The translations under genes were made by a program, and so were the position numbers. Of a stretch of 64,000 nucleotides of DNA, positions 3,734 to 56,516 are shown piece after piece. The notes beneath the pieces are model-generated. The model was not told the DNA's origin and searched no databases. It was given only the letters and a program-made list of their open reading frames with translations. Within the stretch, counting starts at the first letter, position 1. Each line of letters starts with the position of its first letter. The stretch lies in assembly GCF_053078305.1 (NCBI RefSeq), contig NZ_CP166879.1. One strand, written 5' to 3'.

Positions 3734-5460
3734 GCCAGGGATTCCTGCACATGAAGACTGGCAGCATAAGCCTTCTGATAACGTTTTTTCGCTTCCGCAC
3801 GGGCAGGCTTGCCGGAGGACGTTCGGGGAATACTGTGGGGCGGCAACAGATCGATAGCCGCGGTCACGCCAAATTCGCTTTGGATCCGTGCCGCCAGCGC
3901 GTGGATAAGCTGCCCGCGACGTTCTTCATCGCTGATCCGACACTGGATCTGCAAAATGATTTTTTCCTGGGCGGTAACAAAAGCAATCGCATCGCCAGAA
4001 TGAATTTCCGGTTCCTGTTCCGCTATATATTCAATATCCTGCGGCCAGATATTACGGCCACGAATAATAATCAGATCTTTAATGCGTCCGGTGACATACA
4101 GATAACCGTCCAGCAGATAACCGAGGTCGCCAGTGTCTAACCAGCCCGTCGCGGCAATCTCGTCTTGCGAAGCCTGGTCGCCAAAGTAACCGCTCATCAG
4201 ACTGGGACCGGAGATGCAAATATGGCCTACCACACGTTCCGCGACCGGCATACCTGCTTCATTGCGGATTTCAATACCATGTTCCGGCAACGCTTTGCCG
4301 CAGTTGACGAAAGTCGATACGGCGCGTGTCTCTGCACCCGGCGCGACGGCTTTACCCTGATATTCGAGGATGTCGCGATCCACTTCGTTAACCACAACCC
4401 CGGAGGCTTCATCAGAGAAGCTGACAGCCAGCGCATTTTCTGCCAGTCCGTAGCACGGCATGAAAGTTTTATTGTCAAAGTTAACCTGACGGAAACATTC
4501 AGCGAATTGATGGAGTTGTTCTGCGGAGATGGGTTCTGCACCAATACCAGCGACGCGCCAGCAGGAAAGATCCAGTTCAGCGAGATCTTTTTCATTCACG
4601 CGGCGCTGGCACAATTCATAGCCAAACGGCGGCGCAACGGAAACGGTGCCGCGATTTTTACTGATCAATTTAAGCCATTGCAGAGGACGCATGGCAAAAT
4701 CCTGAGTGCGCAAATAATCTACTGAAAGTTGCGTGGCGACCGGGGTCAGGAGAAAGCCGACCAGTCCCATATCATGGTAGAAAGGCAGCCAGGAGACGCA
4801 GCGGTCGCCAGGGCGTAATTTAATGCCGTCGTGGCTTATAGCACGTAGATTAGCCATCACTTCGCGATGGGTGATAATGACGCCACGGGGAAAACGGGTG
4901 CTGCCGGAGGTGTACTGGAGGTAGGCGATATCGTTCGGAACTGGACGCTGGAGCGCAACATCAGCTTCCGGTAATGCCTTAAACCAGGCGTGGCTTAATA
5001 CATGCAATTCGGGGTTGTTATGCGTGGCGGCATTGACCAGCGGCAACCACTCATCACCAGTGATAATGGCAGCGGGCTGGCAACTTGCCAGTAAACCCTG
5101 CAGTTTGGCGCTCCAGGAATCCCGCTGACCGACGCCCATTGGAATCGCCAACGGGACGGCGACTAAGCCGGCATACTGGCAGGAAAAAAAAGCCTCTACG
5201 AACCCGCTACTGGTTTCGGCAATCAGCGCCACGCGATCGCCTTTTTTCAGGTTCAGCGATAACAACCGCTTCGCACCAGCTTCGGCACGTGCTTTTAACG
5301 TCTGATATTCCAGTTGATCTTCAAGTTGGCAACGTCTGTCATAAAAATTCATTCCGGCGCTACTCAGAGCGGCGTAGTCCAAAGCATCAACCAGCGTTGG
5401 AAAATCGGCATAGCGCATAGGTAGGGAATGCGTAAAGATTTTATTAGACATATACACCAC
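3730..5460 (-). CDS. fatty acyl-AMP ligase / acyl-ACP synthetase (adenylate-forming enzyme)
   Basis: 576 aa; AMP-binding motif YTSGSTRFPRGV; single adenylation domain with no condensation or thiolation domain. Confidence 0.8.
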   Translation of the reverse strand: MVYMSNKIFTHSLPMRYADFPTLVDALDYAALSSAGMNFYDRRCQLEDQLEYQTLKARAEAGAKRLLSLNLKKGDRVALIAETSSGFVEAFFSCQYAGLVAVPLAIPMGVGQRDSWSAKLQGLLASCQPAAIITGDEWLPLVNAATHNNPELHVLSHAWFKALPEADVALQRPVPNDIAYLQYTSGSTRFPRGVIITHREVMANLRAISHDGIKLRPGDRCVSWLPFYHDMGLVGFLLTPVATQLSVDYLRTQDFAMRPLQWLKLISKNRGTVSVAPPFGYELCQRRVNEKDLAELDLSCWRVAGIGAEPISAEQLHQFAECFRQVNFDNKTFMPCYGLAENALAVSFSDEASGVVVNEVDRDILEYQGKAVAPGAETRAVSTFVNCGKALPEHGIEIRNEAGMPVAERVVGHICISGPSLMSGYFGDQASQDEIAATGWLDTGDLGYLLDGYLYVTGRIKDLIIIRGRNIWPQDIEYIAEQEPEIHSGDAIAFVTAQEKIILQIQCRISDEERRGQLIHALAARIQSEFGVTAAIDLLPPHSIPRTSSGKPARAEAKKRYQKAYAASLHVQESLA

Positions 5461-5814
5461 GAAAAAATTGGATATCCAAAATAAAATGACAATAATGCGG
5501 TGGATTATATAGGTATAAAAGATAAATGAGATAGTATTTTCATTGGTGTGATATTGAACATTGATTAAAATAATGCTTTAAATCTTAACTCTGTTTATTG
5601 TGAATAATATTTAATTTATGAATATATTAAGATAATGCCCTGGTGGGTCGCATTAAATCCACAATAGTCATGTTGATCGGCTAACGGTGGCGCTGGTGTA
5701 TCGTAATTATTCATAAATATTATTTTATTTTTCCTTATATTCATTGCGTGGATAGTTAAGGTACCGTCCGTTGCTGTTTATTTTCAGCATTAATTATTTG
5801 TTATCCACTAAGCT
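5461..5814. promoter_or_regulatory. AT-rich divergent intergenic region between the ligase operon and yghO (putative promoters)
   Basis: 354-bp non-coding, strongly AT-rich segment between divergently oriented genes. Confidence 0.4.
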
Positions 5815-6957
5815 ATGGAATGCGATCTGCTGATGATTCAAATTGAAAAAGTAACTAATAAAAATGACCTTAAGGCATTTATCGCTTTTCCGTCATCACT
5901 TTATCCCGACGATCCAAACTGGATACCCCCTTTATTCATTGAACGCAACGAGCATTTGTCTGTGAAAAATCCGGGGACGGACCATATCATCTGGCAGGCG
6001 TGGGTGGCAAAAATAGCCGGGCAGATAGTTGGGCGTATTACCGCGCAAATCGATACCTTACACCGCGAGCGTTACGGCGAAGATACCGGTCATTTCGGCA
6101 TGATTGACGGCATTGATGATCCGCAGGTTTTTGCCGCGTTGTTTGGCGCAGCGGAAGCGTGGTTGAAGTCACAAGGTGCAAGTAAGATCAGCGGTCCTTT
6201 CAGCCTGAATATCAATCAGGAAAGCGGATTACTGATTGAAGGTTTCGATACACCACCCTGTGCGATGATGCCACACGGCAAACCGTGGTATGCCGTGCAT
6301 ATTGAACAATTGGGTTATCACAAAGGCATTGATTTACTGGCGTGGTGGATGCAGCGAACCGATCTCACTTTCTCTCCGGCGCTAAAAAAACTGATGGATC
6401 AGGTGCGCAAAAAGGTGACCATTCGCTGCATCAATCGCCAGCGGTTTGCCGAAGAGATGCAGATCCTGCGTGAGATTTTCAACTCTGGCTGGCAGCACAA
6501 CTGGGGATTTGTGCCGTTTACCGAACATGAATTCGCGACCATGGGCGACCAACTTAAATATCTGGTGCCGGACGATATGATCTACATCGCTGAGATTGAT
6601 TCTGCACCCTGCGCGTTTATTGTCGGCTTGCCGAACATCAACGAGGCGATTGCCGATCTGAACGGATCGCTCTTTCCCTTCGGCTGGGCAAAATTGCTGT
6701 GGCGTTTGAAAGTCAGCGGTGTGCGAACTGCGCGAGTGCCGCTGATGGGCGTGCGGGACGAGTATCAGTTCAGCCGCATCGGCCCGGTGATTGCGCTGTT
6801 ATTGATTGAAGCCTTACGCGATCCGTTTGCCCGCCGGAAGATCGATGCGCTGGAGATGTCATGGATCCTCGAAACCAATACAGGCATGAATAACATGCTG
6901 GAACGCATTGGGGCGGAGCCGTACAAGCGTTACCGATTGTATGAAAAGCAGATTTAA
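5815..6957 (+). CDS. yghO: YghO-like protein, putative N-acyltransferase
   Basis: 380-aa ORF beside glcC, the position yghO occupies in E. coli; the acyltransferase fold is recalled from family annotation and is not visible as a motif. Confidence 0.6.
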   Translation: MECDLLMIQIEKVTNKNDLKAFIAFPSSLYPDDPNWIPPLFIERNEHLSVKNPGTDHIIWQAWVAKIAGQIVGRITAQIDTLHRERYGEDTGHFGMIDGIDDPQVFAALFGAAEAWLKSQGASKISGPFSLNINQESGLLIEGFDTPPCAMMPHGKPWYAVHIEQLGYHKGIDLLAWWMQRTDLTFSPALKKLMDQVRKKVTIRCINRQRFAEEMQILREIFNSGWQHNWGFVPFTEHEFATMGDQLKYLVPDDMIYIAEIDSAPCAFIVGLPNINEAIADLNGSLFPFGWAKLLWRLKVSGVRTARVPLMGVRDEYQFSRIGPVIALLLIEALRDPFARRKIDALEMSWILETNTGMNNMLERIGAEPYKRYRLYEKQI

Positions 6958-6963
6958 TACCAG

Positions 6964-7728
6964 CTAACTCAGGTTCATCTCCAGCGGCACCGCCGAGCGA
7001 ATCAAATGGTGGCCTTCCAGCTCGATATCGTGGAGATTCTTTTTCACGGTCCGCACATGATCGCGTGCTGCGCGCTGGGCGACGTGCGGCAGCCGCTGCA
7101 ACACCGCGTTGTAGATCCGCGCATGCTGGCGATCGATCTGCTTTTTTTGCTGTGGTCGATGGTAGAGATTATTTACGCTGGCAAACACTGAATTAAACAT
7201 CAGGTCAGTCAATGATTGCAGCGTAAACACCAGCACCTGATTGTGAGAAGCCTGACAAATGGCGAGATGGAAAGCGTGATCCAACTGCGCATGTTCGATC
7301 AGCGAAATCTCTTTGTTGTTCTCACTGGCGGCGAGCATTTTTTCATAACAGCGGGTTATCACAACAAAATCAGCCTGCGTTCCCAGCGTTGCCGCCAGCC
7401 TTGCCGATTCGCCCTCCAGCAATGCGCGAACGTCGAGCAGATCGTACAGCGTTCGCGGCTGCGTACTGAACAGATGGATCAGCGGGCTGGTGTCCTGCAC
7501 CCGATTAAGCCGTGCGACACGAGAATCGCGACCCTGCGCCGTTTCAATAATCCCGCGCCCGCGCAGCACGGTCAGCCCTTCACGCAGTGCGGAGCGTGAG
7601 AACCCGAGCTTTTCACACAGTCGACGTTCCGAGGGAAGCGGCTGACCGACCTTCAGTACGCCGTCGATAATTAACCGTTCGATACTCTCTGCAACCACTT
7701 CGCAAATAGGGCGACGTTCATCTTTCAT
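6964..7728 (-). CDS. glcC: GlcC, GntR/FadR-family regulator of the glycolate operon
   Basis: Protein from MKDERRPICEVVAESIERL matches GlcC as recalled; start set at the internal Met rather than the ORF-track start at 7788. Confidence 0.9.
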   Translation of the reverse strand: MKDERRPICEVVAESIERLIIDGVLKVGQPLPSERRLCEKLGFSRSALREGLTVLRGRGIIETAQGRDSRVARLNRVQDTSPLIHLFSTQPRTLYDLLDVRALLEGESARLAATLGTQADFVVITRCYEKMLAASENNKEISLIEHAQLDHAFHLAICQASHNQVLVFTLQSLTDLMFNSVFASVNNLYHRPQQKKQIDRQHARIYNAVLQRLPHVAQRAARDHVRTVKKNLHDIELEGHHLIRSAVPLEMNLS

Positions 7729-7979
7729 TCCCGGACCTCGTGCACAGGTAGGACCAATTTTTCTGTTCTTAACTCGCAAAACACGCACATCACGTAAGTG
7801 ATTATGTTACATCAATTTAACATTGAGTTAACCAAGACAAGGTCACAGAGCTGGAAAAAAAAATGGTCTGACCGGTAGCTAAAGAGATAGACGAAAACGA
7901 AAAGCCCGCTTAATAACTGTTCACAGAAGCAGCGCGCAAAAATCAGCTGCCACACAACATAACAAAGCGAAGCCTACTC
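7729..7979. promoter_or_regulatory. glcC / glcD divergent promoter region
   Basis: Intergenic region between divergent glcC and glcDEFGB. Confidence 0.5.
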
Positions 7980-9479
7980 ATGAGCATCTTGTACGAAGAG
8001 CGTCTTGATGGCGCTTTACCCGATGTCGACCGCACATCGGTACTGATGGCACTGCGTGAGCATGTCCCTGGACTTGAGATCCTGCATACCGATGAGGAGA
8101 TCATTCCTTACGAGTGTGACGGGTTGAGCGCGTATCGCACGCGTCCATTACTGGTTGTTCTGCCTAAGCAGATGGAACAGGTGACATCGATTCTGGCTGT
8201 CTGCCACCGCCTGCGTGTACCGGTGGTGACCCGTGGTGCAGGCACCGGGCTTTCTGGTGGCGCGCTGCCGCTGGAAAAAGGTGTGTTGTTGGTGATGGCG
8301 CGCTTTAAAGAGATCCTCGACATTAACCCCGTTGGTCGCCGCGCGCGCGTGCAGCCAGGCGTGCGTAACCTGGCGATCTCCCAGGCCGTTGCACCGCATA
8401 ATCTCTACTACGCACCGGACCCTTCCTCACAAATCGCCTGTTCCATTGGCGGCAACGTGGCAGAAAATGCCGGCGGCGTCCACTGCCTGAAATATGGTCT
8501 GACCGTACATAACCTGCTGAAAATTGAAGTGCAAACGCTGGATGGCGAGGCACTGACGCTGGGATCGGATGCGCTGGATTCGCCTGGTTTTGACCTGCTG
8601 GCGCTGTTCACCGGATCGGAAGGTATGCTCGGCGTGACCACCGAAGTAACGGTGAAGCTGTTGCCGAAGCCGCCCGTGGCGCGGGTTCTGTTAGCCAGCT
8701 TTGACTCGGTAGAAAAAGCCGGACTTGCAGTTGGTGACATCATCGCCAATGGCATTATCCCCGGCGGGCTGGAGATGATGGATAACCTGTCGATCCGCGC
8801 GGCGGAAGATTTTATTCATGCCGGTTATCCCGTCGACGCCGAAGCGATTTTGTTATGCGAGCTGGACGGCGTGGAGTCTGACGTACAGGAAGACTGCGAG
8901 CGGGTCAACGACATCTTGTTGAAAGCGGGCGCGACTGACGTCCGTCTGGCACAGGACGAAGCAGAGCGCGTACGTTTCTGGGCCGGTCGCAAAAATGCGT
9001 TCCCGGCGGTAGGACGTATCTCCCCGGATTACTACTGCATGGATGGCACCATCCCGCGTCGCGCCCTGCCTGGCGTACTGGAAGGCATTGCCCGTTTATC
9101 GCAGCAATATGATTTACGTGTTGCCAACGTCTTTCATGCCGGAGATGGCAACATGCACCCGTTAATCCTTTTCGATGCCAACGAACCCGGTGAATTTGCC
9201 CGCGCGGAAGAGCTGGGCGGGAAGATCCTCGAACTCTGCGTTGAAGTTGGCGGCAGCATCAGTGGGGAACATGGCATCGGGCGAGAAAAAATCAATCAAA
9301 TGTGCGCCCAGTTCAACAGCGATGAAATCACGACCTTCCATGCGGTCAAGGCGGCGTTTGACCCCGATGGTTTGCTGAACCCTGGGAAAAACATTCCCAC
9401 GCTACACCGCTGTGCTGAATTTGGTGCCATGCATGTGCATCACGGTCATTTACCTTTCCCTGAACTGGAGCGTTTCTGA
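7980..9479 (+). CDS. glcD: glycolate oxidase subunit GlcD (FAD-binding)
   Basis: 499 aa beginning MSILYEERLDG; conserved operon order. Confidence 0.95.
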   Translation: MSILYEERLDGALPDVDRTSVLMALREHVPGLEILHTDEEIIPYECDGLSAYRTRPLLVVLPKQMEQVTSILAVCHRLRVPVVTRGAGTGLSGGALPLEKGVLLVMARFKEILDINPVGRRARVQPGVRNLAISQAVAPHNLYYAPDPSSQIACSIGGNVAENAGGVHCLKYGLTVHNLLKIEVQTLDGEALTLGSDALDSPGFDLLALFTGSEGMLGVTTEVTVKLLPKPPVARVLLASFDSVEKAGLAVGDIIANGIIPGGLEMMDNLSIRAAEDFIHAGYPVDAEAILLCELDGVESDVQEDCERVNDILLKAGATDVRLAQDEAERVRFWAGRKNAFPAVGRISPDYYCMDGTIPRRALPGVLEGIARLSQQYDLRVANVFHAGDGNMHPLILFDANEPGEFARAEELGGKILELCVEVGGSISGEHGIGREKINQMCAQFNSDEITTFHAVKAAFDPDGLLNPGKNIPTLHRCAEFGAMHVHHGHLPFPELERF

Positions 9480-16888: not shown

Positions 16889-19800
16889 ATGAATAAGAAA
16901 TTTAAATATAAGAAATCGCTTTTAGCGGCTATTTTGAGTGCAACCCTGTTAGCCGGTTGTGATGGCGGTGGCTCCGGATCTTCCTCCGATACGCCGCCTG
17001 TAGATTCTGGAACAGGGTCTTTGCCGGAAGTGAAACCTGATCCAACACCAAACCCGGAGCCGACGCCTGAGCCAACGCCGGACCCAGAACCTACGCCGGA
17101 ACCGACACCTGATCCTGAGCCAACACCAGAACCGGAGCCAGAACCTGTTCCTACGAAAACGGGTTATCTGACCCTGGGCGGAAGTCTGCGGGTAACTGGT
17201 GATATCACCTGTAATGATGAATCCAGCGATGGCTTTACATTTAAACCTGGCGAGGACGTTACTTGCGTGGCGGGTAACACGACAATTGCCACCTTCAACA
17301 CTCAGTCAGAAGCTGCGCGTAGCTTGCGTGCGGTTGAAAAAGTGTCGTTTAGCCTTGAGGACGCGCAAGAACTGGCGGGCTCCGATGACAAGAAAAGCAA
17401 TGCGGTTTCGCTGGTAACGTCCAGTAACAGCTGTCCGGCGGATACAGAACAGGTTTGCCTGACGTTCTCCTCGGTGATCGAGAGTAAACGTTTCGACTCG
17501 CTGTATAAGCAAATCGATCTGGCACCGGAAGAGTTCAAAAAGCTGGTCAATGAAGAGGTGGAAAACAATGCTGCGACCGATAAAGCGCCATCCACTCATA
17601 CTTCACCGGTCGTGCCCGTCACCACGCCGGGAACAAAACCGGATCTGAACGCTTCCTTCGTGTCGGCTAACGCGGAACAGTTTTATCAGTATCAACCCTC
17701 GGAAATCATTCTCTCAGAAGGTCGCCTGGTGGATAGCCAGAGATATGGTGTTGCTGGCGTCAACTACTACACCAATTCAGGCCGTGGCGTGACAGGAGAA
17801 AATGGTGAATTTTCCTTTAGCTGGGGCGAAACCATCTCCTTTGGTATCGACACCTTTGAACTGGGCTCAGTACGCGGCAATAAGTCGACCATTGCATTGA
17901 CTGAGTTGGGCGACGAAGTTCGCGGCGCGAATATCGATCAGCTTATTCATCGTTATTCCCAAGCCGGAAAAAATGATGAGCGTGAAGTGCCGGACGTAGT
18001 GCGCCAGGTCTTTGCCGAGTATCCCAACGTGATCAACGAGATTATCAATCTCTCGTTATCCAATGGCGAGGCGTTGAGCGAAGGCGACCAAACCTTTGAG
18101 CGGACAAACGAATTTCTTGAGCAGTTTGAATCCGGGCAGGCTAAAGAGATTGATACGGCGATTTGTGACTCTCTTGGGGGCTGCAACTCTCAGCGTTGGT
18201 TCTCGTTGACAGCACGCAATGTTAACGAAGGTCAGATTCAGGGCGTTATCAACAAGCTGTGGGGTGTGGATGAAGATTACAAATCGGTGACGAAATTCCA
18301 CGTCTTTCATGACTCTACCAACTTCTATGGCAGCACCGGTAATGCGCGCGGTCAGGCGGTGGTGAATATCTCCAACGCGGCCTTCCCGATTCTGATGGCG
18401 CGTAATGATAAAAACTACTGGCTGGCCTTCGGCGAGAAACGGGCCTGGGATAAAAATGAGCTGGCGTACATTACTGAAGCGCCTTCCATTGTGCGACCAG
18501 AGAACGTGACACGCGAAACCGCCACCTTCAACCTGCCGTTTATTTCGCTGGGGCAAGTGGGCGATGGCAAGCTGATGGTTATCGGTAACCCACACTACAA
18601 CAGCATCCTGCGTTGCCCGAACGGTTACAGCTGGAACGGGGGCGTTAATAAAGATGGGCAGTGTACGCTCAACAGCGACCCGGATGACATGAAGAACTTC
18701 ATGGAGAACGTGCTGCGCTATCTGTCAAATGATCGCTGGTTGCCGGATGCAAAATCCAGTATGACCGTGGGTACTAACCTGGAGACGGTGTATTTCAAAA
18801 AACACGGGCAGGTTACAGGAAACAGTGCTGCGTTTGGCTTCCATCCGGATTTTGCGGGTATCTCTGTTGAGCATTTAAGTAGCTATGGCGATCTCGATCC
18901 GCAGGACATGCCACTGCTGATCCTCAACGGCTTTGAGTATGTGACTCAGGTGGGGGGCGATCCCTATGCAGTGCCTCTGCGTGCAGATACCAGCAAACCG
19001 AAGCTGACCCAGCAGGATGTGACCGATCTGATCGCCTATCTGAACAAAGGTGGCTCGGTGCTGATCATGGAAAACGTGATGAGCAATCTTAAGGAAGAGA
19101 GCGCGTCTGGCTTTGTGCGTCTGCTGGATGCCGCAGGCCTGTCAATGGCACTGAACAAGTCGGTGGTGAATAACGATCCGCAGGGGTATCCGGATCGCGT
19201 ACGCCAACAACGCGCAACGGGTATTTGGGTCTATGAACGTTATCCGTTTGTTGATGGTAAACCGCCGTATACCATTGATGAAACAACGAAAGAAGTTATC
19301 TGGAAATACCAGCAAGACAACAAGCCTGATGATAAGCCGAAACTGGAAGTTGCCAGCTGGCAGGAGGAAGTTGAGGGCAAACAGGTAACGCGTTATGCCT
19401 TTATTGATGAGGCGGAGTTTAAAACAAAAGAGTCTCTGGAGGCTGCAAAGGCAAAAATCTTTGAGAAGTTTCCTGGATTAAAGGAGTGTAAGGACCCAAC
19501 TTACCACTACGAGGTCAACTGCCTGGAATATCGTCCTGGCACGGGAGTTCCGGTTACTGGTGGCATGTATGTTCCACAGTATACGCAACTAAGCCTTAAC
19601 GCCGACACTGCAAAAGCGATGGTGCAGGCTGCAGATTTAGGCACCAACATTCAGCGTCTGTATCAGCATGAGCTCTACTTCCGGACCAATGGTCGCAAAG
19701 GTGAGCGTCTGAGCAGCGTCGATCTGGAACGTCTGTACCAGAACATGTCGGTCTGGCTGTGGAACGATACGAGCTATCGTTATGAAGAAGGCAAAAATGA

Positions 19801-49718: not shown

Positions 49719-50324
49719 TCAACAGGCGTATAACAGGTACTCGTCAATCATCAGTTCCAGCTCGCGCTTTTCCCGTTTGCGCGCCACAGCCCAGTTTTCA
49801 AGCTCTGCATGTGATTTATGCTTTAACTCTTCAGTCCAGGGCTGCATGGAGTGGGCACACATCAGATCATACCAGCACAGCCATATCAGCGTGTGGTAGA
49901 GATCACGATCGTCGAAACGCCGGAGCAGGCTGTTCAGCCTGTTTGCCAGCCGGTTTTCACCCAGACGATGTGGCTCACTGAGTAAAACGCCGCCCAGATT
50001 AAAATGTGTAAGCAGCATGATTTCATGGGTCTGAATGCTGGTCATTAACCCTTCCTGAATGGCAGGAATGAACGGTGGTGTTCCCGGGTTGACGACCTGA
50101 TAGAGTCCCTGTGGTGCCACTGAGATGATAGTGCCTTTTTCCGGCAGAAAAAAGTGTGCCAGGGTCAGACGGTGATAACCATGAAGATGCGGAGACCCCA
50201 TTCCATGAGCGACGATAAGCCTCGTTCTGATGCTGGATGAGCAGCAGCTCACACCGGTTTTCAAGTTTTTGCATAATATTCTCTCCTTTAGCGCGCAGCA
50301 AAATGCCTCCGGGGGCCGGATCAT
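49719..50324 (-). CDS. hypothetical protein downstream of alpA
   Basis: About 200-aa ORF; start set at an internal Met to avoid overlap with alpA. Confidence 0.4.
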   Translation of the reverse strand: MIRPPEAFCCALKERILCKNLKTGVSCCSSSIRTRLIVAHGMGSPHLHGYHRLTLAHFFLPEKGTIISVAPQGLYQVVNPGTPPFIPAIQEGLMTSIQTHEIMLLTHFNLGGVLLSEPHRLGENRLANRLNSLLRRFDDRDLYHTLIWLCWYDLMCAHSMQPWTEELKHKSHAELENWAVARKREKRELELMIDEYLLYAC

Positions 50325-50359
50325 GCCTTTGCTGCGGTGGAACGGATAACGGTCAGGAA

Positions 50360-50620
50360 TTACGGACGGGACTGTGCAATACGCGCCTGCAGCCAGGCTT
50401 CCACTTCGCTTTTCAGCCATCGGGAGCTACGGCCCAGTTTGATGGGGGCAGGAAAGGCACCATCCTTGATGAGCTTGTAAAACCATTTATCGGTCAGGCC
50501 GGTCAGCTGAGTGATAAACGACATGTCGACCATCTGGTCATCCATCAGTGAAACTGGGGTATTCATGAAAATGTTCCTCCGGATGTTGTTAATCTCAACC
50601 AGCGTTGGTGATGAAAACAA
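50360..50620 (-). CDS. alpA: AlpA-family transcriptional regulator
   Basis: 86 aa with helix-turn-helix LTGLTDKWFYKLIKDGAFPAPIKLGRSSRW. Confidence 0.8.
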   Translation of the reverse strand: MFSSPTLVEINNIRRNIFMNTPVSLMDDQMVDMSFITQLTGLTDKWFYKLIKDGAFPAPIKLGRSSRWLKSEVEAWLQARIAQSRP

Positions 50621-50951: not shown

Positions 50952-51743
50952 TTATTCTCTGTAATTACAAACAACAGTGATCTTATCCGGTTTTTTTACC
51001 GTTACGGGTTTCAGAGGGTCAATTTTATATACAGGGGTAATGAGCACGCCGGAATTTATGGAAAAAAGAGGGACCCAGCAATAAACGTCCGGATATTTCT
51101 GTGTCTCCGGAATACCTTTTGCGCCAGAGACCATCAGATCTGTAACGCTCACAAAAAATGACTGCCGCAAATCAAAAAAGTACTCGTTATATATCACATC
51201 CTTTGCCAGCAGGATGACGGCATTACCAACAGCCGCTTTTACAGGTATTTTATCAGATGGATTATCGTGATTGTATATTGTTCTTTCGATATAAATAAAA
51301 CAGGCATATTTCGTCTTCTCCCCGGATAGCTGCATCTGGTATTCGCAAATGTCTTTGATACACCGACTTTCAACCCTTCCAATCATCTTATCCCGGCGAT
51401 AGTGTCTTTTATGTTTCAGCGCGTACAGAACACCATTTGAACTGTCAAACTCCAGGATTCTTCTGGTGAAAAGTTTGTTTTCCCAGATTTCCAGACAATA
51501 CTTCTCTGCACTGACGACATTGCGTTTGCGAGGAAGATCCCGTTGATACACTCCATTTAATAAGCGTGACTGCAGTTCGCCTGCAAGTTGATAATAACAG
51601 TTAATATCGTTAAGGACAGGTGCTGTGGCGCTGAGTAATGCGTTGATTACCTTAGAGCGCGAAAGTTTGTGGGTATGACAGTACTCATCCACAATTCGCA
51701 GCGTCTCATCACTGGTCATATTGAAAGTTATACGTGTTGTCAT
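50952..51743 (-). CDS. hypothetical protein with ribbon-helix-helix-like N-terminus
   Basis: 263-aa ORF in an AT-rich segment; N-terminus RITFNMTSDETLRIVDEYCHTHKLSRSKVINALL has a strand-helix-helix pattern; rest unrecognised. Confidence 0.5.
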   Translation of the reverse strand: MTTRITFNMTSDETLRIVDEYCHTHKLSRSKVINALLSATAPVLNDINCYYQLAGELQSRLLNGVYQRDLPRKRNVVSAEKYCLEIWENKLFTRRILEFDSSNGVLYALKHKRHYRRDKMIGRVESRCIKDICEYQMQLSGEKTKYACFIYIERTIYNHDNPSDKIPVKAAVGNAVILLAKDVIYNEYFFDLRQSFFVSVTDLMVSGAKGIPETQKYPDVYCWVPLFSINSGVLITPVYKIDPLKPVTVKKPDKITVVCNYRE

Positions 51744-52300: not shown

Positions 52301-52995
52301 TTTGTTAAGTAATGCCTGTTGTGTGGAGACTATTCTGGGTCCGCCATTGCTTTTGTGCGTTTGTGTAAGTGTTTTTGGCTAAATAAGAGTATGACTTCGC
52401 CAGTGTTGATACAGTGGATAACGGTGATTAAGGAATTACTGTTAATGATCTGTTCCTGCAGCTTACCTGATGAGTTTTGGTAGTAATACGTAAAAGAGTA
52501 TGCCTTATACCATTAAAAACAGCCTTACGGCGTGTTGTTTAACCCTGTACCTCTGTTACTCATGTAGTACGTTACGGAAAACTACGTTAATTGTCATATC
52601 GGGTTATGGCGTTATGCCTTCAGTATTAAAAACATTTTTTACCGGAGAAACAGGGAAGTGGAAAGGCTTTCGGGATAACGTCAGGCCATTCTGACGGTAT
52701 TACGTTAATCACAGTACAGGATAACGGGAGGGTAATGGAATTTTAAACCAGAGTAGTTCCGCTGTTGTTCACTGGAAAAAGTGATTGCCCACACGCGTTA
52801 TAAACGCCTTCCCGCTTCAGTCTGGTTACCAGAGCTTCAGGCGTTATATGCGCTGTAACGGGCTGTTACGTATGCTGTTCTCTGTCTGCTTCTGATACCC
52901 GTGGACGTCGTTACCGGAGGTCACCCTGCCTGATAACGTTTTCTTCAAATTTACGGCAACGCGTCTTCCTGTGTTACAGAACACGAGGAAGAAAC

Positions 52996-53595
52996 ATGAA
53001 GACTTACAACGCCAATCCCGGTTACGAAATGGATCCCCAGCTCCTGACACACTTTAATCAGCATCTGGATTCATTATTCGGGGTCTATTCGAAGCTGTTA
53101 CCGTTCAGAATGGATTTTGCTTACCGAAAAAACACATTCAGCTACGGATGCGCCTGCAGGTACGCCATGTGCGCGGAGATGCTGCAACTGATTAACGAGG
53201 TGGGAGAGAAACTGGTCGGGTATGCCTGGGTGATGGAATATACAGAACGTAAAGGGCTTCACATTCATTTTGTGGGCTATCTGAACGGTCAGATCCACAG
53301 GAGTTCGTATCTGGTATCCAGATTGATGGGAGATATCTGGAGGCGGGTTACCGGGGGGGATGGTTACTACCACTGGTGCCGGTTTAATAAAAATTATCCG
53401 GTAAACATTAATCACGTCATTCACTATTCAGACCACAAAGCGGTGAATGCTTTACGCTATGCCATTAGCTACCTTGCCAAACGAGAACAGAAAGAATGTG
53501 GCATCGTTCTTGGTTGCAGCAGGCTTCCTGAAAAAAGTCACCGGGGGCGACCGCGACTGGACAGCACCCTGCCGGGGATATGTTCTCAGGTATAA
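52996..53595 (+). CDS. YfjJ/YagK-family protein (inovirus Gp2-like)
   Basis: 199-aa ORF with GAGGA ribosome-binding site; family assigned by recollection. Confidence 0.5.
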   Translation: MKTYNANPGYEMDPQLLTHFNQHLDSLFGVYSKLLPFRMDFAYRKNTFSYGCACRYAMCAEMLQLINEVGEKLVGYAWVMEYTERKGLHIHFVGYLNGQIHRSSYLVSRLMGDIWRRVTGGDGYYHWCRFNKNYPVNINHVIHYSDHKAVNALRYAISYLAKREQKECGIVLGCSRLPEKSHRGRPRLDSTLPGICSQV

Positions 53596-53970
53596 GGTTC
53601 TGAGCGACAACTGCGGACTGGCTCTAATCTTTGCAGTCGGTTCCGGAGGCTACTTCAGAGGCACTATGCATTTTTTACGATGTGGTTACTCCGTATGAAC
53701 GAAACCATACGGAGACTTAACCATACATGACACACCAGTAAAACCCCTGATGGCTGCAACGGTGCTGCATGCGCTGGATGTCCATCTCTGCTTGCTGACA
53801 GTTTTTTACGTCGGTGGGCCATTGTGTGACAACCACAGTGCTGTAACAGCAGCCTGCCTGTTTTACCTTAACCCCATTCCAGATTTTTAACTGAACCGCC
53901 ATTCACACCCTGACCACGCTGCCCGTACCGGGACGCTTGCTGCCTGCGTGTCGTCTGGCGGCTGAGGAAT

Positions 53971-54360
53971 ATGACGATGTACGCAAAATCTTTTCTCGCA
54001 TTCGATGGCAACGGATGCCTGACCGTTGCCCGTACTGCACAGACAGCGCCTTACGATCGATACACCTGTCACCTTTGCGGCAGTGCGCTCAGATACCACC
54101 CGCAATGCGATACCGAACGTCCCTGGTTTGAACACACTGGCGAAGGGCTGGCTGAGCACGGTCATGAGTGCCCTTATGTCAGACCGGAGCGCAGAGAAAT
54201 ACTGTTGATTAAACGCTTACAGCAATGGGTACCGGATGCCTTACCCGTGGTGCGTAAAGCCAGCTGGCACTGCAGACAATGCCAGCACGATTATTATGGG
54301 GAGCGGTACTGCACACACTGTCATACAGGGCGTTTCAGTGAGGAGGCAGTGGCAGGATGA
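53971..54360 (+). CDS. Cys-rich zinc-ribbon-like protein, paralog A
   Basis: 129 aa; CHLC...WFEH...WHCRQC...CTHCHTG pattern; stop overlaps start of paralog B (ATGA). Confidence 0.5.
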   Translation: MTMYAKSFLAFDGNGCLTVARTAQTAPYDRYTCHLCGSALRYHPQCDTERPWFEHTGEGLAEHGHECPYVRPERREILLIKRLQQWVPDALPVVRKASWHCRQCQHDYYGERYCTHCHTGRFSEEAVAG

Positions 54361-54782
54361 ACGGTCTAAAAACGGGGCTGGGGATGACGCCGGGTGAGCA
54401 CATTATCAGTGCCGATTCTGCGCTCAGCAGAAATATCAGGCATTGTTTCTGCCTTTCCTGTCGTGGTCGGTTGATTTTGCAGACAGATGCTCAGGGGGCG
54501 TGGTTTGAGCATGATTTACATGCCCTGAGCGAGCAACAGAAGGCGGCCTGTGTGGTGCTGAATCCGGAAAAATCCCATCCTTACATTGATGATATGGCGA
54601 TGTTTTTATCGCCATTACCGGTCGTACTGGAGTGGCATTGTGTGATGTGTGAGCAGTTTTTTCATGGGAAGAAATTCTGTGAGGCCTGTGGTACGGGGAT
54701 TTATTGCAGAGCAACATGTACGAAGTCTGTTTACAGCTACCAGCCAGATTTGTACCAGGACTGCGGAGGTGCGAGTACTTAA
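54357..54782 (+). CDS. Cys-rich zinc-ribbon-like protein, paralog B
   Basis: 141 aa; same CxxC...WFEH...WHCxxC...CxxCGTG pattern as paralog A. Confidence 0.5.
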   Translation: MNGLKTGLGMTPGEHIISADSALSRNIRHCFCLSCRGRLILQTDAQGAWFEHDLHALSEQQKAACVVLNPEKSHPYIDDMAMFLSPLPVVLEWHCVMCEQFFHGKKFCEACGTGIYCRATCTKSVYSYQPDLYQDCGGAST

Positions 54783-55253
54783 TCCAAAATATCCGCTCTG
54801 CGCAGGGCGTTCAGAGGTATTGCCAGCCTGCATTTTATCCGGTGTTTCGCACCCACCCCGTTCGTGACACAAAGGCGCGACACCGGATATCCGCAGTCCT
54901 GCTTACCTGAATAAAACCCGGGGGATTGATTGTGTACTGTGGTGCGAAATCGCACCGTGATCGCGGATTCGCCGAATCTGCACTGTGGTGTCAATAAACC
55001 ACACGCGAGAGTCCTCTCCGTATTGATCAGTGCATCAGGACGATTTCTGCATTGTTAATCCAGGGGCTGCATTATTCATTTCCCTGCTAATGGACGTTAC
55101 ATCCTAGATATTCATGATCCTGATTTCCCTGAGCAGTATCAGCGCTTATTGGAGCGTCTGGATTATCTGACGAAGCCCGGTACTAAAGCATCAGGCCAGC
55201 GTAACTCTGGCTACAGCGGTTTTTGACCTGTTGTAACTGTAAGGTGATTTATT

Positions 55254-55820
55254 ATGTATACAGAATCAAACGTTAAGCTTTCCTGTAACGCCCTCTGGCA
55301 AAAGTGTGTCCTTGCAACTCTGTATCGGGCTGCAGCCACACATCCTGAAATTAAATTATTACAATTTAAATTAATACCTTGCCCTGGTATTAATAAGGCC
55401 ATTCCCTCTCTGATGGCTGATTTTACTGGTGAACTGCATAGACTCATTTCTGAATATTTGCAGTGCAAGCGACGTAAAGATAAATCTGTTGAGCCCACCC
55501 CTTTATATTATCTCTGGAGTAGGGAGGCTGTGGCTAACGGTACCACTCCTTATCTTATGGTGCTGCTACTTAATAATGATGTCTGGTGTAAGAGTCGTGA
55601 GGTGGTGGTTCTCAGAAATCTGATTGAGCAGGCGTGGGGAAAAGTATTGGGTGAAGATAACTCCATTACACATCTGGTTGTGTATCCTGAAGTGCTGTCG
55701 TTGGTATTTGATGCAGCTAACACATACAACGCTGAGCCTGGTGTACTGGAACAGACAGCCCGGGCTTACATTGAATCGCATGGTGCTGTTGAACGTTATC
55801 TTGGGTGTAGTGACTTTTAA
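55254..55820 (+). CDS. hypothetical protein
   Basis: 188-aa ORF in the decayed P4-like region; no recognised motif. Confidence 0.4.
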   Translation: MYTESNVKLSCNALWQKCVLATLYRAAATHPEIKLLQFKLIPCPGINKAIPSLMADFTGELHRLISEYLQCKRRKDKSVEPTPLYYLWSREAVANGTTPYLMVLLLNNDVWCKSREVVVLRNLIEQAWGKVLGEDNSITHLVVYPEVLSLVFDAANTYNAEPGVLEQTARAYIESHGAVERYLGCSDF

Positions 55821-56207: not shown

Positions 56208-56516
56208 ATGTTGACTACAACAAGCCACGACAGCGTATTTCTGCGTGCCGATAATTCCCTGATTGACATGAACTATATCACCAGTTTCACCGGTATGACC
56301 GACAGAGGGTTTTATAAGCTGATCAGTGAAGATTCATCAAGCCGGGCCGATCCAGCCGCAGGTATAAAAGCGAAGTGTCACAGTAGATACAGTAACGAAT
56401 CGAAGAATCACGGGGGCAGAAGTATGAAACGTGTTGTGATACCGGTACGCTGGCAATGTTCAACGTGTCAGCGCTGGTATTGTGGCGCTGTTCCCTGGTG
56501 CTGGTCCCCCCCGTGA
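56208..56516 (+). pseudogene. AlpA-like regulator remnant
   Basis: N-terminus DNSLIDMNYITSFTGMTDRGFYKLI parallels AlpA at 50360-50620 (DDQMVDMSFITQLTGLTDKWFYKLI) and then diverges into unrelated sequence. Confidence 0.5.

Follow-up and report, generated by a model that had tools for sequence, protein, structure and literature searches.

Two small genes, designated here ZR-A and ZR-B, lie next to each other on the plus strand of the analysed stretch of DNA (hereafter the window, 64,000 nucleotides in total).

53971..54360, plus strand: ZR-A (ORF1), 129 aa if read from 53971, 127 aa from the likely start at 53977
54357..54782, plus strand: ZR-B (ORF2), 141 aa, paralogue of ZR-A
54357..54360, plus strand: ATGA stop/start overlap, in which the start of ORF2 and the stop of ORF1 share four bases

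Both reading frames and their overlap at ATGA are present as the initial annotation had described them, on the plus strand. The true start of ORF1 is probably the second ATG (53977), giving a protein of 127 aa beginning MYAKSF. We prefer this start because the GAGG at 53964-53967 lies 9 nt 5' of it and merely 3 nt 5' of position 53971, and because the MYAKSF start is used both by homologues from other genera and in the RefSeq annotation. Upstream of the ORF2 start, GAGGAGG is found at 54340-54346. Since the stop/start overlap recurs, with 4 nt in E. coli and 13 nt elsewhere, we infer that translation of the two genes is probably coupled. At 54836-54889 on the plus strand, 54 nt past the ORF2 stop, two 15-nt arms of 87% complementarity form an inverted repeat around a 24-nt spacer; no T-run follows it. 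In the surroundings of the pair, neither an Rfam scan nor searches for promoters, terminators and repeats revealed anything exceeding chance.

The surrounding island

The first 33545 nucleotides of the window are the E. coli T2SS-beta / yghJ (SslE) locus, up to yghD. The island that harbours the ZR pair starts after yghD and further contains CbtA/CbeA, RadC, an antirestriction gene, DUF932, Ag43, a YeeP-like GTPase and YfjI. Core genes of the window share 99.7% identity with E. coli, the island region just 92-95% with the best complete genomes. As ARAGORN detected no tRNA in the whole window, the tRNA-side junction of the island and its integrase should be sought beyond position 64000. In the annotation of the E. 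coli K-12 island CP4-6 (yagK-yagN), no gene is named 'zinc ribbon'. Closer to the pair, the following features were identified.

49719..50420, minus strand: DUF2913-type gene (homology over 50225..49725), following alpA
50360..50620, minus strand: intact alpA (homology over 50566..50366), inverted relative to the ZR genes
50952..51743, minus strand: hypothetical gene, 263 aa, between the inverted alpA and DUF2913-type genes and the YagK/YfjJ-ZR genes
52996..53595, plus strand: upstream YagK/YfjJ-type gene, 'inovirus-type Gp2' in RefSeq; REP_ORF2-G2P E=2.4e-4, YagK_YfjJ_C E=4.6e-4
55254..55820, plus strand: downstream YagK/YfjJ-type gene, UCP030791 subtype, 'inovirus-type Gp2', with YLM in place of His-x-His
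56220..56416 (within 56208..56516), plus strand: alpA pseudogene with one frameshift and two stops
56418..56495, plus strand: mini zinc-ribbon remnant containing RWQCSTCQRWYCG, following the alpA pseudogene

The product of the upstream YagK/YfjJ-type gene is Rep/G2P-like and displays the motifs HIH (GLHIHFVGYL) and YxxK (YAISYLAK). Its downstream counterpart is probably a degenerate, decaying Rep-like copy, because it has YLM at the His-x-His site and its close relatives are annotated in two or three fragments. The intact alpA and the DUF2913-type gene are located 3.4 kb upstream of the ZR pair on the opposite strand; this inversion with respect to the YagK/YfjJ and ZR genes suggests that the module has been rearranged in the island of the window. 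Just 3' of the pair, the stretch 56208..56516 is what remains of another AlpA-ZR module, once present as a second copy. A further remnant, 26 residues of an hha-like gene, is found at 52757-52822 on the plus strand; in related islands this gene is intact and situated 5' of the YagK/YfjJ gene (19553-19765 in locus L001).

Family membership, paralogy and zinc sites

The family to which both proteins belong, left unrecognised in the initial annotation, is already catalogued under the Pfam entries DUF7828 (PF25165) and Zn_ribbon_11 (PF11682, formerly DUF3279). DUF7828 is matched by ORF1 with E=8.6e-28 (model positions 1-87 of 87) and by ORF2 with E=1.9e-22 (positions 2-86 of 87), Zn_ribbon_11 with E=1.2e-9 and 1.3e-14, respectively. 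The two domains follow in the same order, DUF7828 then Zn_ribbon_11, in both ORFs, which are full-length members with the same two-domain architecture as the rest of the family and no differences from it. RefSeq names both genes 'putative zinc ribbon protein'. ORF1 is 94% identical to RefSeq WP_098143484, and both ORFs are 92-94% identical to RefSeq cluster representatives. The pair is therefore already known as a sequence feature, being a regular representative of a domain family that has been catalogued. Names found for this family in UniProt are 'Ybl85', 'DUF3279' and 'DNA-directed RNA polymerase beta subunit'; the last label is spurious and was supported by no search.

The family is narrow: among 1.84 billion cluster representatives, searched exhaustively with a profile, just 271 clusters reach E<=1e-3, and the homologues that carry species names are from Enterobacterales. 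A search of AFDB50 returned the family alone, one AFDB relative being labelled 'competence protein'. The ORFs had no match in NCBIfam, and neither they nor the two flanking genes matched any family among the defence models of PADLOC-DB 2.0 at E<=0.1. PHROGs gave a single weak match of ORF2 to phrog_12017 (E=0.013). A full-text literature search on the ZR family and YagK/YfjJ found no paper on function.

That the two ORFs are diverged duplicates of one module had been proposed from a shared order of motifs, and these motifs are indeed present and colinear in both proteins. BLASTP aligns ORF1 with ORF2 at 31% identity over 83 aa (E=2e-11). Together with the two Pfam models matched in the same order, this identifies the motif list as a sign of genuine paralogy. 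Four zinc sites are predicted in the pair.

ORF1, C33, C36, H55, C67 (numbering from 53971): putative CCHC site, CxxC...WFEH...C, in DUF7828
ORF1, C101, C104, C114, C117 (numbering from 53971): putative C4 ribbon, WxCxxC...YxG...CxxCxTG, in Zn_ribbon_11
ORF2, C32, C35, H52, C65: putative CCHC site
ORF2, C95, C98, C108, C111: putative C4 ribbon

Conservation was assessed in an alignment of 46 diverse family members (A2), with ORF1 numbered from 53971. Residues C33, C36, F53, H55, W99, C101 and C104 are invariant, and A20, C67, G110, C114, C117 and G120 are conserved in at least 90% of the members. Zinc ligands are thus kept although the sequences are only 25-30% identical. Each chain probably binds zinc at two places, through CCHC ligands in its N-terminal part and through the C4 ribbon at its C-terminus. 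Of the earlier proposal of two probable zinc-binding knuckles per protein, zinc binding stands as probable, given the ligand conservation and a confidently predicted fold; what had been taken for knuckles are two complete four-ligand sites. Pfam matches of ZR-A and ZR-B are limited to DUF7828 and Zn_ribbon_11, and no catalytic domain is present in either protein.

The AlphaFold2 model of ORF1, computed from the alignment of 46 members, has a pLDDT of 88.2 and a pTM of 0.60. This structure prediction, another of the checks suggested beforehand, yields a confident fold composed of two short strands, a helix (20-25), a hairpin (39-55), a helix (72-86) and a C-terminal three-stranded ribbon (97-125). 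In a model of both proteins fused as A-(GGGGS)5-B, the ORF2 half shows the same order of elements. The two halves fold there without a confident mutual arrangement (pLDDT 78.4, pTM 0.42), pTM being the sole measure of the interface and the co-evolution signal between the chains being diluted, as the fusion alignment of 32 rows mixes real pairs with arbitrary pseudo-pairs.

Among solved folds no significant match was found, and a profile search of PDB sequences gave only weak matches to the eL43 ribbon. The C-terminal 30 residues of the ZR proteins match generic C4 ribbons (eL43/L37ae, the C-terminal domain of rubrerythrin, the N-terminal zinc finger of MCM) locally, in sequence as well as in 3D. 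Isoelectric points range from 5.2 to 8.4, and both zinc domains have a net charge of about 0. The middle segment with its helix carries about +1 on average, +1 to +4 in type A proteins and -3 in E. coli type B; in this E. coli-specific variant of ZR-B the middle segment is acidic and the basic middle helix has been lost. As the proteins are not basic, their signature as DNA binders is weak.

One lead concerns the N-terminal domain. CoiA_N (PF25164) matches 8 of the 46 members at E<=0.1 (best 1.3e-3) and DUF7830 matches 6 of them, in both cases on the CxxC...FEH stretch; the family consensus gives E=0.016 for DUF7830 and E=0.46 for CoiA_N over residues 21-56. The likeness consists of a beta-hairpin, CxxC, about 15 residues and aromatic-x-H (WFEH in the ZR proteins), all colinear. 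CoiA_N and DUF7830 are zinc N-domains of DNA-processing proteins. Being below significance, this resemblance is taken as a weak lead that falls short of establishing membership. Unlike CoiA, the ZR proteins lack a PD-(D/E)XK nuclease domain and the CoiA C-terminal domain, having the C4 ribbon instead; the CoiA nuclease domain PF06054 was matched in no Pfam scan of the ZR proteins, whose chain ends after the ribbon.

Distribution, duplication and gene context

A ZR pair with at least 80% of the query covered is present in 1406 of 5426 complete E. coli genomes and also in several other genera, so that its conservation as a pair, which the initial annotation had left to be checked, is established. 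Some part of the pair matches in 3818 of these 5426 genomes, in up to six places per genome. Outside chromosomes the family is rare: it was detected in none of 50,697 phage genomes, in 29 of 72,556 plasmids and on 3 of 2.9 million IMG/VR contigs. On the two IMG/VR contigs with upstream sequence, a Rep-like gene precedes the ZR genes, as in chromosomal islands. Where dS is unsaturated, dN/dS of ZR-A and ZR-B amounts to 0.07-0.26 (pairwise Nei-Gojobori, overlap excluded). Such values argue that both are real genes under purifying selection.

Divergent lineages possess one ZR gene, of type B-like sequence (MRILK...WFEHD...GIYS), and this single-gene form appears to be ancestral; its duplication into A and B would have happened in certain lineages, E. 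coli and Salmonella among them. In E. coli, types A and B occur together with a 4-nt overlap; the overlap is 13 nt long (ATGCGxATGCTGA) in Salmonella, Mixta, Hafnia, Siccibacter, Tenebrionibacter, Yokenella and the pair of a Klebsiella plasmid. Salmonella B resembles ORF2 (35% identity, E=2e-20) more closely than ORF1, suggesting that the A/B duplication is older than these lineages. The E. coli B type has diverged strongly (dN about 0.8 from other B types). In four species ZR-B is fragmented or a pseudogene, and in one Klebsiella island it is missing, ZR-A being intact in all these cases. These losses indicate that the pair is not obligatory. Type A seems able to function by itself.

To define the context of the ZR genes, we surveyed about 25 loci from at least 15 genera, mapping four families (ZR, YagK/YfjJ, AlpA and DUF2913) in each by locally built HMMs. 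The survey covered E. coli, Salmonella, Klebsiella, 14 further species found by scanning species-representative genomes, a Klebsiella plasmid, five divergent single-gene members and the three IMG/VR contigs. Each full-length ZR gene with an upstream flank has the same orientation as a YagK/YfjJ-type, AlpA or DUF2913 gene that precedes it by at most about 400 nt. The most frequent order is YagK/YfjJ - AlpA - (mini-ZR) - ZR-A - ZR-B - YagK/YfjJ - DUF2913. Alternative orders are AlpA - DUF2913 - YagK/YfjJ - ZR, YagK/YfjJ directly followed by ZR, and DUF2913 followed by ZR after a 10-nt gap. Beyond the module the cargo is fully variable and comprises T6SS genes, an RND efflux pump, an ars operon, defence-type genes and genes of sugar metabolism; in locus L027 the integrase is located past the cargo. 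Since the ZR genes remain linked to these partners however the module is ordered and whatever cargo follows, the linkage argues for a backbone function of integrase-type islands rather than for cargo. Such linkage shows shared function or shared inheritance, not mechanism. In Pseudomonas islands, an adjacent Gp2-like and AlpA pair has been listed, with the integrase, among likely core functions of the element, and the same islands are moved by jumbo-phage transduction (preprint 10.1101/2024.08.29.610337).

Directly between alpA and ZR-A, a conserved mini-ZR gene of 44-45 aa was noticed (L012, 9731-9865; L013, 9730-9867; L022, 9732-9866; L024, 8729-8863; also L014 and L015). Its product, MEKRRRTQP..RW.CPRC.R.YCG..PCPVCFRP..AQP, consists of a basic tail and a C4 ribbon of the Zn_ribbon_11 type. 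It represents a third, ribbon-only paralogue, mostly missed by gene callers.

Two loci of the survey deserve separate mention. The metagenomic contig L032 carries, at 5070-8856, two tandem DUF2913 - ZR units with gaps of 8-10 nt, the tightest coupling of these two genes in the survey, with a YagK/YfjJ gene between the units and two alpA genes flanking them. Locus L024 (NZ_CP082986.1, 58490-76858) holds the full module Gp2 - AlpA - mini-ZR - ZR-A - ZR-B - Gp2 - DUF2913 on a conjugative Klebsiella IncFIB/HI1B NDM-1 plasmid, an RND efflux operon following directly 3'. Such islands thus insert into resistance plasmids too.

The family resides in the backbone of islands through which genes for virulence, resistance and defence are moved, the efflux pump on the IncFIB/HI1B plasmid being an example. 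About 70% of complete E. coli genomes contain such islands, among whose cargo are adhesins, T6SS genes, resistance genes and defence genes. To know the role of the four-gene module would explain excision, maintenance or transfer of these very common 'cryptic prophage-like' islands.

Possible roles of the ZR proteins

Nucleic-acid binders, anti-defence proteins and regulators had been listed as possible roles in the initial annotation. This list can be narrowed, because the genes belong to the backbone and not to the variable cargo and match no defence model. The best reading, which we put forward tentatively and would not yet bet on, is that the ZR proteins are non-enzymatic zinc adaptors serving excision, replication or transfer of the island. 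As zinc-stabilised adaptors they would take part in the island's DNA transactions (excision, rolling-circle-type replication or initiation of transfer) and might bind island DNA and/or a partner, Rep-like or AlpA. AlpA regulates excision or acts as its directionality factor. Through the overlap of stop and start codons, ZR-A and ZR-B would be made in equimolar amounts, and because equimolar synthesis is assumed, we propose that both proteins probably act jointly, as a heteromer derived from a homomer. This reading is favoured by the backbone linkage, the REP_ORF2-G2P match of the upstream gene, the weak likeness to CoiA_N and DUF7830, the conserved A/B overlap and the Gp2-like and AlpA core of Pseudomonas islands. 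Near-neutral charge weakens it, and so do the cases in which ZR-B is broken or missing and the failure of the fused model to give a confident heterodimer, with the reservation about its diluted pairing signal made above.

A bolder proposal, which we regard as unlikely, assigns the ZR proteins to a hitherto unrecognised machinery for mobilisation, with the Rep-like YagK/YfjJ protein and AlpA at its centre, in which they would be the subunits for DNA recognition or loading. This machinery would make islands of the CP4-57/SRL type replicate or transfer after excision, and an A/B heterodimer would specify the island origin.

The same low probability is given to a role in transcription. The ZR proteins might be small zinc-finger transcription factors, comparable in function to Ogr/Delta or to RNA-polymerase binders of the TraR/DksA type, activating genes of the island, its cargo or a helper element after AlpA induction. 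P2 Ogr and P4 Delta are small zinc-finger late-gene activators of integrase-type mobile elements, and Delta of the satellite phage P4 is a tandem duplication of an Ogr-like zinc finger. The ZR proteins resemble them in being small, non-enzymatic zinc proteins of integrase-type elements, and their duplication into A and B parallels that of Delta. Moreover, they are encoded directly 3' of alpA in most lineages, and their near-neutral charge suits protein-protein contacts. However, Ogr has one zinc site and the ZR proteins probably have two, and the ZR family is absent from the phages searched. Ogr_Delta (PF04606) does not appear in any Pfam output of the ZR proteins, even at E<=10, and the same holds for the DksA/TraR zinc finger and HTH models; no helper element is known. 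In several loci (L029, L032 and the window) the ZR genes are linked most tightly to the Rep-like or DUF2913 gene and not to alpA.

It is improbable, to a greater degree, that the ZR proteins are anti-defence or defence-associated accessory proteins which protect the island or its host during transfer. Genes for antirestriction, RadC and DUF932, as are typical of leading regions, do occur in the same islands, and defence-type cargo often follows the ZR genes, such as SNF2/AAA/S8 peptidase/methylase in L006 and SMEK_N-CTD10/MC6/DUF2326 in L027. The antirestriction block, however, is at the side of the island opposite to the ZR genes, and these stay constant while the adjoining cargo turns over among T6SS, RND efflux, arsenic resistance and metabolic genes. 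PADLOC gave no match, and the distribution of the family (missing in phages, nearly so in plasmids) does not favour such a role.

A toxin-antitoxin-like addiction pair stabilising the island might be suspected, since the two genes are small, overlap by their stop and start codons and are located on a mobile element in which CbtA/CbeA is already present. This is very improbable: a toxin domain is absent, ZR-B decays while ZR-A persists, and toxin-antitoxin identity was rejected since both proteins are paralogues with the same fold and many lineages have a single ZR gene. Still less credit is due to the view that the genes are relics without function that travel with the backbone of the island, for which the decayed neighbours in the window (the degenerate YagK/YfjJ copy and the alpA pseudogene) and the broken ZR-B of four species might speak, but which low dN/dS of both genes, invariant zinc ligands in highly divergent sequences and intact copies in thousands of genomes refute as far as sequence analysis reaches.

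A natural fusion protein was encountered in the family. P0233 (238 aa) combines an extra N-terminal DUF7828-like domain with a full-length ZR protein, an arrangement that fits the idea of ZR modules acting in pairs.
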